From Bacillota bacterium (lineage in GTDB: Bacteria > Bacillota > Ch66 > Ch109), in the NCBI GenBank assembly GCA_050952625.1, contig JBMNLH010000001.1:160001-224000 (forward strand): a stretch of 64,000 bases of DNA, in the 5' to 3' direction. The position numbers and the translations under genes are program-made. The notes under the pieces are model-generated. The model saw only the letters and a list, made by a program, of their open reading frames with translations, was not told the origin of the DNA and did not search any database. Position 1 is the stretch's first letter. Each line of letters opens with the position of its first letter. Positions 15,806 through 60,348 of the stretch are shown here, one piece after another.

Positions 15806-15892
15806 CTAGATTACCCAGGCTTAATTGGCAAGCGGAGCATTAACCATAGTGGTCATGCCTGAACCTAAAAACCGGTAAGGAAGAAAACTTGC

Positions 15893-16036
15893 AAAGCGCC
15901 AGGACCAGCCATGCTGTTTTGGCTGGTTGACGAGGAAGGGGTTTATCGAAAGATTCGGCGGGTGCCCCTCGGTGTGTCACCACCGTGAGTCCGGTAATAA
16001 AACCTCCGAGTAATCGGAGGGACAGAGGACCGGACA
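15893..16036 (+). ncRNA. glmS ribozyme (GlcN6P-activated)
   Basis: AAGCGCCAGGAC...GTTGACGAGG...TTATCGAA..TTCGGCGGGTGCCC core, upstream of glmS. Confidence 0.95.
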
Positions 16037-16235
16037 GTGACCGCCTGAGACGACCGGAACCGATTTTGTCGTTGAGGTGGAGCAGGGATATGGGACAGGA
16101 TTAGTGAAATAATTCACTAACCTTGTGCTTGAGCCCAGCTTCAGGCTTGTGTGGGATGATTTTTCACAGAGTGAACTCGGTCAGCTCATATGGGCCTTGA
16201 CCTCCATTGTCGTTTTCCAGGATGATTTTTTATGG

Positions 16236-30556: not shown

Positions 30557-30965
30557 TTACCGTCACCGGAAATTCGTGCCTGGTAACTGGGAATACGATG
30601 AAAGTAAAACCAAACCGAAATAGATTGACCCCATCGCTCCTACATCAATATCCCAAACATAAACTTGGGACTTCGGAGCCGACAGGGCCATCTTTACAAG
30701 ATTATTATTTTACATCTTATTATAACCATAAGTGCAGCAGTTTTGGCAAGAGAAAATTCTAGAACTATTGGCTGTATAGGCTGTTATTTTGTAAAAAGGT
30801 TGTTTAAAGCTACTACTATGAGATAATTATGATAGTGGTTTTTTGGGGCGCTTGACGAAGCTAACGGCGATTATAGGAGAAGATTTATGCTAAACTGTAG
30901 TATTTGATTTATTATAAATTCTAATGTTTTCGATAATTAATACTATGAAGACAAGGGGAAGCCTG

Positions 30966-36079: not shown

Positions 36080-37735
36080 ATGAAACAAATAAATGGCCTT
36101 AGAATTGCTGGTAAGCTAACCATGCTGGCTTTAGCTGTGCTGGTGATTGCGGCAGTTTGCCTCACTCCATCGGAGATGACATCGACCATCGCGATGTCTG
36201 ACATAGGAGTAACTATTGACGGAGAAGCAGTGGTGTTCCAAAGCGGGTATGGTAAGCCATTCATAGATGCAAATAATAGAACACTCGTGCCACTCCGCGG
36301 GGTGATGGAGTCCTTCGGGGCTGCGGTTGCCTGGGATAACCCTACCCGCACCGCCATTATCGAAAAAAACGGGATTACAGTCCAGGTGCCGATTGGACAA
36401 GCATATATTTTGGTCAATGGTGTGTCGGTGACAAATGATACCTCGGCCGTGATCAAGGACGACCGGGCGTACTTGCCGATTAGGGCTGTTCTTGAAGCCT
36501 TTGGGGCCGGCGTTTCCTGGGATGCGGTGAACAGAATTGTGGTGGTCAGAACCGATGGAACGGTTGCCGAAGGTCCCACAGATCCTAAGCAAGGTGAGGG
36601 TATATCACGCGCTGGCGAGCTTGATGCCATGTGGATTTCCTATCTTGAGTACATGGAAATGCCCAAAGATAAAGCCGGGTTTGAGGCCGCGGTCAATAGA
36701 ATGCTTGACCAGTGCGTTGATTTAGGGATGAATGCGGTTATTGTGCATGTTCGTTCCCACTGTGATGCCATGTATCCCTCCGAGTATTTTCCGTGGTCGT
36801 CTTTTGCCAGCGGACAACAGGGCGTTGACCCGGGTTACGATCCTCTTGCCTACATGATTGCAGCCGCTCACCAGCGCGGGCTGGAATTCCATGCGTGGCT
36901 GAATCCTTACCGGGTGACCGGCTACGGCTGCAATTGGGATCAGGTGGCAGCCAGCAATCCAGCTAAGGTTTGGCTTTCGGACAATAATCCTTCCAATGAC
37001 CGCTGGGTGCTCTTCCATAGAGGGGAATACTATCTGAATCCTTCGGTCCCGCAGGTGAGACAAATGGTGGTAGATGGAGTTCGGGAAATCGTGGCGCAAT
37101 ACGATGTAGATGGGATTCATTTCGATGATTACTTTTATCCTTCGGTTAACGACAATGATCCTTCGTTGTGTTTTGATAAACCGGAATATGATGTTTCAGG
37201 CAGCACTCTGAGTATCGCCAATTGGCGTCGCCAGAACGTAAATATGCTGGTTAAGGATGTCTATGCGGCAGTTAAGAAAATTGATGCTAACGTGGAATTC
37301 GGAATCAGTCCGGCCGGCAATGTGGATCGTTTACGCGATAATACTGTTTACTTTGTGGATATTGACACCTGGCTGGCAAACCCGGGTTATGTGGATTACA
37401 TTATGCCGCAGCTTTACTGGGGCTTTGAGCGAAGAGATGCTTCGGGTAATATTGCACCCTATGCCTATGAGAACAATTTAAAGACTTGGATTGGTCTGGC
37501 GGCTAAGGGAAATGCCAAATTATATATTGGTTTGAATATGGCCAACGCCGGGACGAAGGTGACTGACAATAACCCGGTTTCCGAATGGCTGCGTTACGAT
37601 GATATCATCGCCAGACAGGTATTGGCGGCTAGAGCGACAGGAAAAGTTGACGGCTTTGCCTTTTTCAGATATGCGATATTTAATAAGGGTGAAGCACAGT
37701 CGGAGGTTGCCAATTTAATTAAGGTATTGAAATAG
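36080..37735 (+). CDS. Secreted protein with copper amine oxidase-like N-terminal (stalk) domain and GHL10 glycosyl hydrolase-like domain
   Basis: Signal peptide; RTLVPLR/RAYLPIR repeats; HAWLNPYR, DGIHFDDYFYP, DYIMPQLYW. Confidence 0.88.
   Translation: MKQINGLRIAGKLTMLALAVLVIAAVCLTPSEMTSTIAMSDIGVTIDGEAVVFQSGYGKPFIDANNRTLVPLRGVMESFGAAVAWDNPTRTAIIEKNGITVQVPIGQAYILVNGVSVTNDTSAVIKDDRAYLPIRAVLEAFGAGVSWDAVNRIVVVRTDGTVAEGPTDPKQGEGISRAGELDAMWISYLEYMEMPKDKAGFEAAVNRMLDQCVDLGMNAVIVHVRSHCDAMYPSEYFPWSSFASGQQGVDPGYDPLAYMIAAAHQRGLEFHAWLNPYRVTGYGCNWDQVAASNPAKVWLSDNNPSNDRWVLFHRGEYYLNPSVPQVRQMVVDGVREIVAQYDVDGIHFDDYFYPSVNDNDPSLCFDKPEYDVSGSTLSIANWRRQNVNMLVKDVYAAVKKIDANVEFGISPAGNVDRLRDNTVYFVDIDTWLANPGYVDYIMPQLYWGFERRDASGNIAPYAYENNLKTWIGLAAKGNAKLYIGLNMANAGTKVTDNNPVSEWLRYDDIIARQVLAARATGKVDGFAFFRYAIFNKGEAQSEVANLIKVLK
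37389..37458 (+). repeat. Copy 1 of a ~70-bp direct repeat (inside the GHL10 gene)
   Basis: Nearly identical to 41882-41951. Confidence 0.85.
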
Positions 37736-37774
37736 ATAAATGCGCCTACGGCTTTATTTGCCCGAGTATAAACT

Positions 37775-37800
37775 AAAACCCCTCATAATTGAGGGGTTTT
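37775..37800 (+). terminator. Intrinsic terminator after the GHL10 gene
   Basis: AAAACCCCTCA-TAAT-TGAGGGGTTTT. Confidence 0.8.
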
Positions 37801-37997
37801 GCCGGGGATTTGTGATTTGGCTTTTTTAGGATTAATATTATTTTATTTGTAATATCTATAGCATCCTTTACATTATAGAATATTTATTATAAGATATAAC
37901 TATGTAGCAAAATATCTCTTTGCATAAAATGTAAATTATCGAGAATTCATTTATCTATTTTTTCAATTAAAAAACCATAACCTCAAAAAAACAAAAA

Positions 37998-38283
37998 GAA
38001 AGGTGGTGCCGGCCTGGTTTCCTGAGCAGCATTACCAAAGGGAAGCTACTAGCGTAAATTTCTCCGTGTTGCTTAGACAACAGCGAAAGTCGGACGCGGG
38101 TAAATTTAAATCGGTGGTGGGTAACCTCACCTTCGGGCAGGACGCCGTAAGCGGCGGTCAAAACCCACCCGAAGCACCAGCGAGAGCTGGTGGCTTAGTA
38201 GCTAAATCCTGTGAATGCTACCGCTCGTTTGTTGAATGAGTGAAAAACCTATTTAAAAGTATTGATGGGTTTAGAAACCAGGA
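37998..38283 (+). ncRNA. Candidate structured leader RNA (long form, with ~180-nt insert) upstream of rplY
   Basis: CCTGGTTTC (38013-38021) pairs with GAAACCAGG (38274-38282); several internal stems with GNRA-type loops; scaffold shared with 57624-57740. Confidence 0.7.
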
Positions 38284-38289
38284 ACAGAT

Positions 38290-38925
38290 ATGAGTAGTAT
38301 ACTGCAAGCCCAATCGCGTGAACTAAGTACCAAAGGATCCTTACGTAAGCTAAGAGAAGCAGGCTATATTCCCGGAATAATTTATGGAGGGAAAAAGCCG
38401 AATCGGAACATTACATTTAAGCGTAAAGAACTGGAATACATACTGGCGCATTCGGGAAAAGGAATCAATACTTTGCTTGAAATTAACCTAGATGGCGAAA
38501 AGAGTGCTGAATCTGATAAAGTAATGATATATGATATTCAAATAGATCCCGTTCGCCGCAGAGTAATCCATGTTGATTATTGCAGGATCTCTATGGCCGA
38601 GAAAGTAACTGCTGAGGTCCCTCTGACCTGGGTCGGCGAATCGCAAGGAGTAAAAGAAGGGGGGCAGTTACAGCCCATTTTACGCTCAATAAGGATTGAA
38701 TGTCTGCCTAACAAAATCCCAAATGACCTTGAAATAGAAGTCGCTGATTTGGGGATTGGCGACAGCATCACGGTTGCCGACATACCGTTATCGCCGGATT
38801 TTACAATATTGAACGATCCACAGGAAATAGTGGTGCAGATCGTTGCTCCAAGGGTTAGGATAGAAAGCACAGTTGAGACAAACAAACCTGATGCAGATGT
38901 AGAAGCAGGTCCGGTTAACAGTTAA
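38290..38925 (+). CDS. rplY: 50S ribosomal protein L25 / general stress protein Ctc
   Basis: RKLREAGYIPGIIYG, QIDPVRRRVIHVD, GVKEGG, ECLPNKIP. Confidence 0.92.
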   Translation: MSSILQAQSRELSTKGSLRKLREAGYIPGIIYGGKKPNRNITFKRKELEYILAHSGKGINTLLEINLDGEKSAESDKVMIYDIQIDPVRRRVIHVDYCRISMAEKVTAEVPLTWVGESQGVKEGGQLQPILRSIRIECLPNKIPNDLEIEVADLGIGDSITVADIPLSPDFTILNDPQEIVVQIVAPRVRIESTVETNKPDADVEAGPVNS

Positions 38926-38996
38926 CTCAAAAAAGAGGTAATGAAAAAGCCATAGAGTTAAACGTTGGGTGCCGAGATATTGAGGTAATGACTACT

Positions 38997-57623: not shown

Positions 57624-57740
57624 GAAAGGTGGTGTCAGCCTGGTTTCCGGGCAGTATACTTGATGCTGCCGCTCGTTAGTTGAACGAGAGACAAGCCTGA
57701 TTTGACCCGTTCAGCTGAGTCAATCATAGAAACCAGGAGA
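57624..57740 (+). ncRNA. Candidate structured leader RNA (short form) upstream of the Ca-ATPase/ter cluster
   Basis: CCTGGTTTC (57639-57647) pairs with GAAACCAGG (57729-57737), covering most of the AGGAG SD; three internal hairpins; scaffold shared with 37998-38283. Confidence 0.7.
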
Positions 57741-57744
57741 ATAA

Positions 57745-60348
57745 TTGCTAGAGTACAAAGAAATTACTGAACTGACCGGAGAAAAGGGGATCTCTGAGGC
57801 GCAAGCACAAGTAATGCGCCAAAAATTTGGGGTCAACCAGCTTACGCCCCCGGTCAGGGACCCGATTTGGAAACAGTACCTGAGGAATTTTGATGATCCG
57901 ATAATTAAAATTTTATTAGTGGCCGTGGTTGTTTCGACGATTGTCAGTATTTTTCAGGGGTCAGGACTATTAGATACCTTGGCGATTGTAGCAGCCGTAG
58001 CTTTAGCTACTGGTATTGCGTTTATAAATGAGTACCGGAGTAATAAAGAATTTGATGTTTTAAACGCGCAACGCGACGAAATTTTGGTAAAAGTTATTAG
58101 AGACGACAAACCGACGCAAATTCCGACCAAAGACATAGTGGTCGGGGATCTGGTTATGTTAGAAGCCGGAGACGGTGTCCCGGCTGATGGCTGGGTTATT
58201 AATGCTGATGATCTGCACGTTGATGAGTCAGCTTTTACTGGGGAAAGTGAGCCGGTCGCAAAAGATCACGGGGACTCAATTCTCAAGGGGACCTATATTA
58301 CGGCCGGGAAAAGCATGTTGCTTGTCGCTGCTGTTGGCGATGCCACCCAAATGGGCGATATCGCCAAATCTTTAGGGATTGACCGGACCCAAACTCCGTT
58401 AGAACACAAGTTGGAGGTTTTAGCCGGGCAAATTAGTAAGTTCGGCTATATCATGGCAGTACTGATTGCCGTAGCGTTATTCATTCGTGGTGTTTTTCAA
58501 GGAGAAGTGACCGGGCTTAATCTGGAAACTCTAGGTTTTATCCTGCACTACTTCATGATGGCTGTGGTCATAATTGTGGTGGCTGTGCCGGAAGGCCTGC
58601 CCATGAGTGTTGCTTTATCCTTATCCCTGGCGATGCGAAAAATGACGAAAGCAAACAGTTTGGTCAGGCGGATGGTGGCCTGTGAGACGATTGGGTCAGC
58701 GACAATTATCTGTACAGATAAAACCGGCACCCTGACGAAGAATCAGATGGAAGTCCATCAGGGTTCAGTCGATAAACCAGGTCGGCTATCGGGGATACCA
58801 CAGAATACTGCCGAATGGCTGAGTTTAAATGCGGCGGTTAACAGTACGGCTTTTCTGGAACGGAAAAACGATCAGTTAGTTGTCATCGGCAACTCAACCG
58901 AGGGTGCCTTGCTTCGATGGCTGCAGAAATACGATATCGATTACGCCAAAGTGAGACAAGCCCACAATGTTGTTAAACAGATTTTGTTTGACAGTACTCG
59001 GAAAAGAATGTCGACAATCATTGAACTGGATGGCCGGCGTTGGTTGCTGGTCAAAGGCGCACCCGAGGTGGTGGCCGGACTATGCCGGGATCAAGTAGAT
59101 TTAGAGCCGGTTAAAGCTTTGGCCCAACAAGCCATGCGAACCTTAGCATTTGCGCATAAAGAATTGAGTGACCAGGAGGAAAGTGAATCCAATTTAATCT
59201 GGGATGGCTATGTGGGGATCATGGACCAACTGCGGGATGATGTGCCGGAGGCGGTTGAGGCTTGCCAGAGGGCCGGGATCACGGTGCGGATGGTCACCGG
59301 GGATAATGCGGAAACCGCCAAAGCGATTGGTCAGGCAACGGGGATTTTGGGTAACGGACGAGTGATCACGGGATCAGATTTTCGTGCCCTTAATGATGAG
59401 AATCTAGATGGGATGGTTGATGAAATTGAGATTATCGCCCGGGCGGAGCCCATGGATAAACTGCGGTTTGTCCAGGCCTTACAGAGAAAGGGTTATGTGG
59501 TAGCCGTAACCGGCGACGGGACGAACGATGCGCCGGCCTTAAAGAACGCCGACGTTGGTCTGGCCATGGGTAAGGCGGGTACTGAAGTCGCTCGGGAAGC
59601 CAGTGACATTATCCTGTTGGACGATGCCTTCCCAACGATTGCCCGGGCTGTTTGGTGGGGTCGGTCCCTGTATGAGAACATCCAGCGCTTTTTGCAGTTC
59701 CAATTAACAATTAATGTGGGGGCGTTGTTAATTGCTTTTATAGCACCGCTCCTTGGTTTCCCAGCTCCTTTTACAATCATCCAACTCCTGTGGATTAATA
59801 TCGTCATGGATACCTTGGCAGCGTTAGCTCTTTGTTCAGAAGCACCGCATAAGGAGTTACTAAACAAACCGCCGGTCCCTAAAACCGAAAAGATCATTAC
59901 GCCATATATGTGGCGGTCAATTATAATAACCGGCTTGTTCTTGGCGGTGGCCAGCATTGCCCATTTATACACCGGGTTTCTGGGAGGGAATAGTGCGGCA
60001 GAACAAAATACAATTCTTTTTGCCACCTTTATATTTGCTCAAGTCTGGAATGGCTTTAACTGCCGAGCCTTAAATGGAAAAATGCCGCCCTTTTTTCAGG
60101 GCAATCCCACCTTCTTCTGGGTGATGGGGGTAATCGTCATTTCCCAGATTGCGATGGTTCAGTTCGGTGGGGCAATCTTTAATACGGTTCCTTTAAGCTT
60201 AGAAACCTGGCTGAGGATTATTGCTTGTTCCGCCTCTGTGTTGGTTGTTGGGTTTATCCTACGGCTGACGATTCCGCAACCCAAAATTGCACCGGCGTCA
60301 TCTCCGCAGGTGGCACCAATCCATTATTTGCAAAATCCTCAGGAGTGA
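57745..60348 (+). CDS. Calcium-translocating P-type ATPase (P2, PMCA-like)
   Basis: TGES, VAVPEGLP, DKTGTLT, KGAPE, TGDGTNDAPAL, FLQFQLTIN, QLLWINIVMDT. Confidence 0.92.
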   Translation: MLEYKEITELTGEKGISEAQAQVMRQKFGVNQLTPPVRDPIWKQYLRNFDDPIIKILLVAVVVSTIVSIFQGSGLLDTLAIVAAVALATGIAFINEYRSNKEFDVLNAQRDEILVKVIRDDKPTQIPTKDIVVGDLVMLEAGDGVPADGWVINADDLHVDESAFTGESEPVAKDHGDSILKGTYITAGKSMLLVAAVGDATQMGDIAKSLGIDRTQTPLEHKLEVLAGQISKFGYIMAVLIAVALFIRGVFQGEVTGLNLETLGFILHYFMMAVVIIVVAVPEGLPMSVALSLSLAMRKMTKANSLVRRMVACETIGSATIICTDKTGTLTKNQMEVHQGSVDKPGRLSGIPQNTAEWLSLNAAVNSTAFLERKNDQLVVIGNSTEGALLRWLQKYDIDYAKVRQAHNVVKQILFDSTRKRMSTIIELDGRRWLLVKGAPEVVAGLCRDQVDLEPVKALAQQAMRTLAFAHKELSDQEESESNLIWDGYVGIMDQLRDDVPEAVEACQRAGITVRMVTGDNAETAKAIGQATGILGNGRVITGSDFRALNDENLDGMVDEIEIIARAEPMDKLRFVQALQRKGYVVAVTGDGTNDAPALKNADVGLAMGKAGTEVAREASDIILLDDAFPTIARAVWWGRSLYENIQRFLQFQLTINVGALLIAFIAPLLGFPAPFTIIQLLWINIVMDTLAALALCSEAPHKELLNKPPVPKTEKIITPYMWRSIIITGLFLAVASIAHLYTGFLGGNSAAEQNTILFATFIFAQVWNGFNCRALNGKMPPFFQGNPTFFWVMGVIVISQIAMVQFGGAIFNTVPLSLETWLRIIACSASVLVVGFILRLTIPQPKIAPASSPQVAPIHYLQNPQE

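Follow-up and report, generated by a model that had tools for sequence, protein, structure and literature searches.

Two sites on the forward strand of the window, as we call the whole stretch of 64,000 nucleotides analysed here, present the same series of short conserved blocks directly in front of two unrelated genes, and this raises the question of whether such a leader is a regulatory RNA of the host or a residue of something else. A preliminary description had favoured the former and proposed a translational cis-regulator (riboswitch, thermometer or protein-binding site) of two stress operons. We conclude instead that both elements are very probably fossil right ends of an insertion sequence (IS) of the IS607 family, and that their fold is that of this element's right-end RNA. 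The observations behind this reading are homology to IS right ends, the junctions and empty sites of related elements, covariation, the lack of an intact protein gene in the assembly, and contiguity of the leader with rplY.

Two structured leaders and their relatives

Copy 1 opens with a Shine-Dalgarno (SD)-like motif, GAAAGGTGGTG (37998-38008), which together with the A before it is complementary at 11 of 12 bases to the 3' end of the 16S RNA (..GATCACCTCCTTTCT), and continues with the 5' arm of helix P1, CCTGGTTTC (38013-38021), assigned from fold and covariation. P2 and an extension of ~170 nt follow (38026-38222), in which folding and covariation place several helices with GNRA and UUCG loops; this region is the putative body of an omega-RNA-like scaffold, and in the aligned copies it shows covariation in helices P2, P2a, P2c and P2d. 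Next come the P3 hairpin GCTCGTT-TGTTG-AATGAG (38223-38240), recognized by sequence and covariation, the P4 hairpin (38247-38270), recognized by its fold and differing in sequence from copy to copy, and the 3' arm of P1, GAAACCAGG (38274-38282). This arm coincides with an IS right terminus, as defined by the right boundaries (..AACCAGG) of elements in two other genomes, G207 and G068, and on a C. estertheticum plasmid; its final GG is the predicted recombination core. A 7-nt spacer (38283-38289) leads to the L25/Ctc gene (rplY; Pfam Ribosomal_L25p and TL5_C), which has its ATG at 38290, spacer and gene together spanning 38283-38925.

Copy 2, likewise on the forward strand, comprises the motif GAAAGGTGGTG (57624-57634, by sequence), the P1 5' arm CCTGGTTTC (57639-57647, by sequence and fold), a P2 reduced to an 8-bp hairpin (57650-57670), from which sequence, fold and alignment indicate that the extension has been deleted, the P3 hairpin (57671-57688, by sequence comparison), a J3/4 segment with a P4-like hairpin (57689-57728, by sequence and fold) and the P1 3' arm GAAACCAGG with the IS right terminus (57729-57737, by sequence). 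Again a 7-nt spacer precedes a gene, here for a P-type cation ATPase identified with Pfam (TTG at 57745; spacer and gene 57738-60348). Copy 1 is a near-full form of the element and copy 2 an internal-deletion form. Homology of copy 1 reaches upstream of the start first noted for it, to an A-rich stretch at ~37970-37997 whose upstream similarity among copies marks it as a remnant of the 3' coding region of a TnpB-related gene (..AACCATAACCTCAAAAA..); this stretch may have a present-day role as a promoter or 5' leader.

The shared blocks are present as first described, in the same order, at 37998-38282 and 57624-57737, and the 24-nt pattern at their 5' side has two matches in the window as against none in 100 shuffles. 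In single-sequence folds CCUGGUUUC pairs with GAAACCAGG, and P1 closes a multi-helix domain in both copies (fold z-scores of -3.2 for copy 2 and -4.1 for copy 1); the pairing proposed in the preliminary description is borne out by these folds and by covariation of P1 and the inner helices across 21 copies. The proposed overlap of the P1 3' arm with the ribosome-binding site (RBS) also stands, in that no SD-like AGG other than the one in this arm lies 5-10 nt before the start codon. We infer that this terminal AGG is the present SD of both rplY and the ATPase gene and that it could be masked by P1.

The impression that the RNA belongs to no known family agrees with a comparison of both sites with Rfam, which gave no match at the gathering score and none of relevance at E<=10; weak matches to RNaseP-T (E = 3.9), to snoRNA models and to the Histone3 stem-loop were dismissed as chance. 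A T-box, considered by comparing GGTGGTGCC with the T-box sequence, was rejected on the grounds that the motif lies at the 5' and not the 3' end and that the genes are not aminoacyl-tRNA related. Elsewhere in the window, the sole gathering-score Rfam matches are glmS and DUF3800-VIII, which are unrelated.

The two sites had been presented as a pair; they belong to a family of 12 in the window's genome (G000, with an assembly 96% complete). Searching with the pattern AAAGGTGGTG-N4-CYTRGTT and at most one mismatch yielded 12 copies there, 10 in a congener (G001) and one in another genus of the same family, while all other genomes gave 0-2 matches each, the level of a reversed-pattern control that itself had none in G000. 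Six to seven of the G000 copies reach ~300 nt and have a P2 extension that is large and conserved, and five contain little beyond the 5' motif and the P1 hairpin, the shortest being a 43-nt hairpin. All 12 lie directly upstream of a co-oriented open reading frame (ORF). The idea of a regulator of stress operons is not upheld by the genes that follow, which are unrelated: beyond L25/Ctc and the P-type ATPase they include pyrE-like, HDAC-like, transketolase, opuAC-like lipoprotein and nadB-like genes, purC, and genes for an AAA ATPase, a Lon-like protease and others. Several copies in G001 sit at genes orthologous to G000 sites and others precede metK and an MBL-fold gene; over the whole set, in which flgK and cobT also occur, the downstream genes have no common pathway.

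A scan for the exact pattern through one genome for each of 185,579 species placed real members solely in records titled Syntrophomonadaceae, Pelotomaculum sp. or Bacillota MAGs, the ~35 other matches being chance singletons without a 3' arm, and BLASTN with one copy reached only its own genus and one other. A covariance model of 87 positions, built with a hand-given structure from the 3' half alone (the full RNA has ~300 positions), recovered eight G000 copies (E<=2.2e-4) and, over 151 genomes, members in three more genera (G039, G021 and G124). In these genera, too, the SD-like motif lies 4-5 nt before CCTGGTTT, and there it is a canonical SD, AAGGAGGTG, AGAGGTG or GGAAGGT; variants at the same place in other lineages are GGAGGTG, AGAGGTG and GGAAGTG. 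The matches of this model fall exactly on the right ends of complete IS elements.

Complete elements, their protein and their insertion sites

Upstream of the members in further genera lies a conserved peptide, ..NWKQWSxIxKAAxAAIKK..SLVxWQHHRKQLLG followed by a stop, which in one locus (L079) is the C-terminus of a long ORF. The RNA overlaps the 3' end of such a TnpB-related ORF in L079, L110/L145, L122, L146, L179 and L180; in L079 an ORF ending at 992 is overlapped by an RNA at 928-1268, and in L179 the RNA occupies 2658-2922, with 2696 as the ORF end and 2922 as the IS boundary. The tnpB-like ORF shares its final ~40-65 nt with the RNA, which runs on to the terminal base of the element; the last codons of the gene hold the SD-like motif along with the 5' arm of P1 and the 5' strand of P2. 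In intact elements GAAAGGTGGTG encodes K-G-G or K-E-V near the ORF end, and the CTG GTT that had been taken for the start of a small upstream ORF (uORF) codes for the Leu-Val within ..SLVxWQH.., a conserved C-terminal stretch of the TnpB-related protein. We reject the CTG/TTG uORF also on its lengths, which range from 3 to >25 codons with no common frame.

The protein matches the NCBIfam model TIGR01766 (TnpB-related) at 42-43 bits, above the cutoff of 32, and guided_TnpB with E = 2e-17 to 2e-18, below the cutoff of that model; a profile of 15 sequences of the family matches Cas12f and TnpB structures (E = 6e-10), and the plasmid homologues are named 'IS200/IS605 family accessory protein TnpB-related protein' in RefSeq. 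It is present in 48 of 401 genomes of the phylum at E<=1e-8 and is multi-copy in many of them. In the C-terminal part neither a TNB zinc ribbon nor a RuvC-III segment was matched, and only D and E are invariant among the 15 homologues; this clade may have a working mode different from that of the TnpBs studied so far. Judged by the coordinates above, the RNA lies where the scaffold of a TnpB guide RNA (omega RNA) would be expected, being structured, ending at the right boundary and having the flank as its prospective guide. A recent report on IS607 elements (bioRxiv 10.1101/2023.11.20.567912) describes a right-end omega RNA, immediately after which the guide begins. It seems likely that the TnpB-related protein has the present RNA as its omega-RNA scaffold.

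Complete elements were found in several genomes. The two copies in G068, which are 99.7% identical over 2321 bp, contain tnpA followed by the TnpB-related gene; the tnpA product (ORF 653-1309 of L179) matches Pfam Resolvase (5.8e-22) and MerR (5e-08), and this architecture, a TnpA with MerR-type helix-turn-helix (HTH) and resolvase domains alongside a TnpB-related gene, is by its domain content that of the IS607 family. Four 2.0-kb copies in G207 (95.9-97.3% identical) have an internally deleted tnpA, of which a remnant was seen by eye, and the copy on the C. estertheticum plasmid is annotated as 'IS607 family transposase' plus 'transposase'. The left junction has ..GGAGG immediately before the IS, whose first base is T, in 8 of 8 cases (four in G207, two in G068, one in G172 and the plasmid). 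At the right end every case reads ..(A/G)ACCAGG, then 5-10 nt, then a start codon, the genes that follow including flgK, cobT and a sugar O-acetyltransferase gene. The GG dinucleotide thus stands at both junctions of the complete elements, and a strict GG core is reported for IS607 elements, along with an upstream target motif, TGGG, that equals the TnpB target-adjacent motif (TAM), in the same source (bioRxiv 10.1101/2023.11.20.567912).

Comparison with empty orthologous sites locates the insertions to the base. At metK, the empty site in G000 has ..TAAGGAGG joined directly to AATTGCTG-GTG (in a wider view, ..GATTAAGGAGG before AATTGCTG-GTG), and the filled site in G001 has ..AACCAGG joined to AATTGCTG-GTG (in a wider view, ..GGAAACCAGG before AATTGCTG-GTG); the MBL gene gives the same pattern of empty and filled sites. 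At flgK, three relatives of G207 read GGGAGG-N6-ATG, and G207 itself has GGGAGG, the IS and then CATAGC-ATG. As the empty sites overall read GGAGG-N6-8-start codon, GGAGG is the host SD and the element lies exactly between SD and spacer. For the L25 and ATPase genes of the window, five relatives within the family yielded no close orthologue (identities of 47-52% and 31-38%), and for this reason no empty site can be presented for these two loci.

Of 31 independent sites, 29 have a start codon 0-14 nt past the right end that opens an ORF of at least 60 amino acids (11 of 12 in G000 and 18 of 19 elsewhere, the two exceptions preceding short ORFs), compared with 12.4% (4834/39013) of random AGG sites in G000 under the same criterion; some of the distances of 0-2 nt probably reflect in-frame alternative starts. 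An automated look at 25 loci of more distantly related proteins (28-38% identity) gave a clear reading at six, which end in ..ACCAGG followed by 7-10 nt and a start; at one more of the 25 (L164), 24 nt with an SD of their own follow the end, and the others, lacking called boundaries, gave no reading. From the junctions and empty sites it is quite probable that the transposase targets GGAGG, aided by selection against insertions elsewhere; the strict location at RBSs could owe as much to such selection as to target choice.

The course of events that we propose would begin with integration of this IS clade at the GG of the SD sequence GGAGG, the insertion coming to lie between the SD and the start codon of a gene, in the orientation of that gene. 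The ..AACCAGG terminus would then leave a substitute AGG at the native spacing, and the flanking host sequence would become the guide of the putative omega RNA. Later, the genome of the window would have lost both the left ends and the protein genes and kept 12 right-end remnants, from ~300 nt down to a bare P1 hairpin, which now form the leaders of host genes at their 5' side.

Neither window copy is an intact element: both are fossils without tnpA, tnpB and a left end. In G000, no intact TnpB-related gene was matched at E<=1e-8, and tblastn with the protein (E<=10) returned C-terminal remnants adjoining two fossils, otherwise weak short matches (E>=1.7), and no remnant beside either window copy. 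The longer remnants, one at C2:143075-143200 and the other in G001 (L010), cover in translation residues 282-326 and 228-326, respectively, of the protein encoded in L079. At 96% completeness an unassembled intact copy could still exist. The left-end sequence of the element (..T[TC]NNNNCAGCT..TAAAAT..) is carried by no fossil.

Multiple copies, inverted 9-nt arms and internal-deletion derivatives might also describe a still-mobile, MITE-like non-autonomous element with the P1 arms as terminal inverted repeats. We regard this as extremely improbable, given that intact elements have the 5' arm within the tnpB-like ORF, with the true left end ~1.7-2 kb away, that the left end is missing from all fossils, and that IS607 elements have no terminal inverted repeats according to PMC6188088. 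Nor do we expect the copies to be stand-alone guide-RNA genes that act in trans with a TnpB-like effector and have guides matching their own downstream translation start regions. The near-complete scaffolds of 6-7 copies and the RNA-library contigs described below, for which DNA carry-over is possible, would fit such a role, and TnpB-derived RNA-guided regulators (TldR) are known from the literature; this account is nonetheless very unlikely, as G000 has no cognate protein gene at E<=1e-8, the helices are decaying, and each guide fits its own locus alone, with ..CCAGG instead of GGAGG at the TAM position and no obvious target.

Structure, decay and retention of the remnants

Covariation was assessed on an alignment of 21 copies from 12 genomes, made with MAFFT and supplied with a structure of nine helices. 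In this alignment 82.0% of cells are paired, as against 32-42% when partners are slid by 1-3 columns; changes on both sides occur at 32 of 57 pairs, and 105 cells are changed on both sides compared with 45.3 +/- 5.8 in shuffles, a number reached by none of 500, these figures being conservative for P3 and P2b, where the MAFFT register is imperfect. P1 itself covaries, reading CCTGGTTAC/GTAACCAGG in G172 and CCTGCGTTCA/TGAACCAGG in G068. RNAalifold on a MAFFT alignment of the 3' halves recovered only part of P3, owing to register shifts between two P3 subtypes. Three full IS loci compared with Rfam (E<=0.1) gave no relevant match, with neither a group I intron nor an IS605-orfB motif among the results. 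The covariation that the preliminary description had proposed to look for is thus found, but we attribute the fold behind it to IS ancestry.

Between orthologous large copies of G000 and G001 the interior is drifting. Differences affect 19 modelled pairs, of which seven are still paired (one through a double change), eight are broken in G001, three are broken in G000 and one is unpaired in both. Substitutions occur at similar rates in stems (19/332 nt) and loops (50/633 nt). Such drift argues against a ligand-sensing junction.

These results bear directly on whether the leaders are host riboswitches, thermometers or protein-binding leaders for stress genes. A multi-helix fold with covariation, a 3' arm overlapping the RBS and the lack of an Rfam match are what such a regulator would offer; yet IS ancestry accounts for the fold, the downstream genes share no pathway, half of the copies have no junction, and the G000/G001 comparison gives seven pairs kept against 11 lost in one species, with stems changing about as fast as loops. 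We consider a host regulator of this type highly unlikely. What endures of the original translational proposal is a real fold and an AGG before the start; the riboswitch or thermometer evolved for stress operons gives way to an IS607-family right end, in substance the mobile repeat that had been named there as the contrary outcome.

RNA-library contigs from four metatranscriptome runs of four studies extend from the element through rplY to 38948-38984. Their starts differ between runs (37877, 37940, 37962 and 37994) and none covers 37600-37876; element and rplY are contiguous in one contig of 1045 nt and one of 701 nt. As contigs alone, these data carry no strand, 5' end or level, and DNA carry-over is possible. 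Upstream of five copies we noted a sporulation-type -10 box (CATAnnnT); the stretch in question is homologous to tnpB coding sequence.

The 5' part of the fossils has fared differently from the interior. Both P1 arms and the motif are kept in the five short forms and in copy 2, the interiors of which differ, and no exact AGAAACCAGG before a gene start was found without the 5' motif. In orthologous copies of G000 and G001 the 25-nt 5' module has 4/150 substitutions against 69/965 for whole elements, a marginal difference on overlapping data (Fisher p = 0.049). A further possibility, compatible with IS origin, is therefore an exapted translational module in which the motif (4-5 nt ahead of P1) would load or hold a 30S subunit, and P1 either brings the motif beside the start (a structure-bridged, split RBS) or opens to expose the terminal AGG. 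Besides the retention and the lower substitution just described, this module would be consistent with the exact 11-nt motif in 8 of 8 G000 copies found by the 3'-half model alone (E<=2.2e-4), with P1 changes in the short purC and AAA-ATPase copies that keep pairing (G-U to A-U; C-G to U-A or G-U), with complementarity of the motif to the anti-SD in all lineages despite differing residues (KEV, KGG, KGS, RKV), and with the contiguity of leader and rplY in the RNA-library contigs. Set against this are an ascertainment bias, the short forms having been found through a motif search, the tendency of Lys/Gly-rich codons to yield purine-rich SD-like strings anyway, a bridged SD-to-AUG distance of ~12-14 nt plus a helix, which is long for an SD, and the small numbers behind a marginal p value. 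We therefore hold the exapted module to be a tentative idea.

Its parts can be put as follows, each of them speculative. The clade might use the SD both as integration motif and as TAM, and offset the damage through an SD of its own inside the tnpB end before P1. The folded scaffold could conceivably set this SD beside the host start, or offer a standby site until the terminal AGG is freed. Once the transposon is dead, hosts would perhaps keep the SD-plus-P1 module as a structure-bridged RBS, which would explain its retention in every fossil down to the 43-nt hairpin.

Significance and comparison with known systems

With both window elements read as IS607-family right ends, the locus carries a caution for the discovery of RNA motifs: covariation and a fixed position before start codons can stem from the RNA of a mobile element, and a candidate 'new riboswitch' may turn out to be transposon debris. 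For transposon biology, it leads to an IS607/TnpB-related clade that occurs widely in Bacillota and, judged by its junctions and empty sites, seems to integrate at GGAGG, to a large right-end RNA family with covariation support that is absent from Rfam, and to one genome in which a dozen right ends survive only in front of housekeeping and accessory genes, as their 5' leaders. Should the protein prove RNA-guided, it would have the SD for a TAM and translation start regions for natural guides, which would be of interest for transposon-host conflict and for compact RNA-guided tools. In the literature searched we found no description of a TnpB/IS607 lineage that targets the SD, although the TAM tables of TnpB surveys may hold GGAGG-type motifs, and none of this RNA family or of the retention of right ends as gene leaders. 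The kind of object, IS607/TnpB right-end RNA and remnants thereof, is already known; as a regulatory-RNA candidate it is ordinary, and for transposon and OMEGA biology it is a useful and perhaps new variant.

In SD-sequestering riboswitch and thermometer leaders, as in the elements described here, the SD region is held in a helix by a strand upstream of it, and the 5' UTR contains a multi-helix junction; the elements differ from such leaders in having no coherent regulon, no ligand evidence, a transposon-end ancestry and decaying interior helices. PATEs and solo right ends of IS200/IS605-family elements are protein-less and keep the guide-RNA-encoding end of a TnpB transposon; PATEs have both ends and are still mobilizable. 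The fossils of the window's genome are likewise protein-less derivatives with a guide-RNA-encoding end but, unlike PATEs, they keep the right end alone and cannot be substrates of TnpA. IStrons, which combine IS605 or IS607 elements with a group I intron, resemble them in landing inside a transcription unit, where RNA structure could lessen the cost to the host; here no group I intron was detected in three full IS loci (Rfam, E<=0.1), and the message would not be repaired by splicing, its RBS being at most replaced or bridged.

For the tentative translational module, precedents exist in the split, structure-bridged RBSs of phage T4 genes 38 and 25 and in the STAB-SD 5' stabilizer of Bacillus thuringiensis cry3A. 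The likeness, an SD-like sequence far upstream of the start and near a helix or 5' end, may serve as a lead only.

Close known systems are IS607 elements with TnpB and a right-end omega RNA, such as CboIStron and ISXfa1 (bioRxiv 10.1101/2023.11.20.567912). Where those target TGGG, the elements considered here appear to target GGAGG, the SD, and to insert between SD and start; the RNA, at ~300-400 nt, has no Rfam model, the protein is without a recognizable TNB zinc ribbon or RuvC-III, and the window copies are protein-less. In other features described by Zedaveinyte et al. the two agree: a tnpA for a serine recombinase with MerR-type HTH, an overlapping tnpB-type gene, a GG core at both junctions, a short upstream target motif that would equal the TAM, and a structured RNA that overlaps the 3' end of tnpB and terminates at the right end.

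Genes and RNA elements of the window

The two fossils of the window, decayed right ends of the IS607 family, each lie just upstream of a co-oriented gene. The L25/Ctc protein encoded behind the first (38290-38925) shows only 44-52% identity to the closest L25 proteins across five genomes belonging to the same bacterial family, and the N-terminal 300 residues of the P-type ATPase encoded behind the second (57745-60348) show 31-38% identity in the same five genomes. Both genes look lineage-specific when judged by protein sequence, and a second, canonical L25 gene may reside elsewhere in the genome. The window also carries a glmS ribozyme/riboswitch on the forward strand (15884-16045; full-length Rfam match, 120 bits, E = 1e-27) and a DUF3800-VIII RNA motif on the reverse strand (30625-30691; Rfam score of 54 bits versus a gathering score of 40).

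Fossils at host start sites

At the pyrE-like ORF of the window's genome (contig C1, 708873-708960), a GTG located 9 nt past the right end precedes the conserved ATG (..MFKDSQ..) by 20 codons, with the reading frame open throughout. This gene may owe an alternative start, or extra residues at its N-terminus, to the fossil. In genome G084 (locus L164), 24 nt with a GGGAGGTG of their own separate the right end ..TTTAAACCAGG from the ATG, which places the insertion upstream of the SD. By its sequence, this locus is an exception to the rule of insertion after the SD.

A 3663-nt contig from an RNA library (run X18) terminates in the 5' motif (window 37993-38025). The upstream part of this contig corresponds to the flank of the nadB-like paralogue (contig C7, around 96680) and not to that of the window; running from this flank into the motif, it suggests that transcription of the upstream genes reads through into the nadB-like copy.

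Insertions within the P2 extension

Two copies harbour additional insertions inside the P2 extension: an AT-rich repeat of ~60 nt with units AGCTACTA / ATAAAGTT in the transketolase copy of the window's genome (contig C2, 142773-143126), and a palindromic purine-rich block of ~100 nt in genome G161 (L149:2095-2170).

A clade of TnpB-related proteins

The clade was sampled as an alignment of L179:1290-2693, L146:1498-2946 and 13 homologues, among which no TNB zinc ribbon was detected. Across this alignment, an Asp (GIDTN) and a Glu (..EDL..) are invariant, and similarity to Cas12f / TnpB structures stops at the ..PAYTS strand. Where TnpB has D-x-NAA-x-NI, by contrast, the clade has H-x-AAA-x-VIARR.
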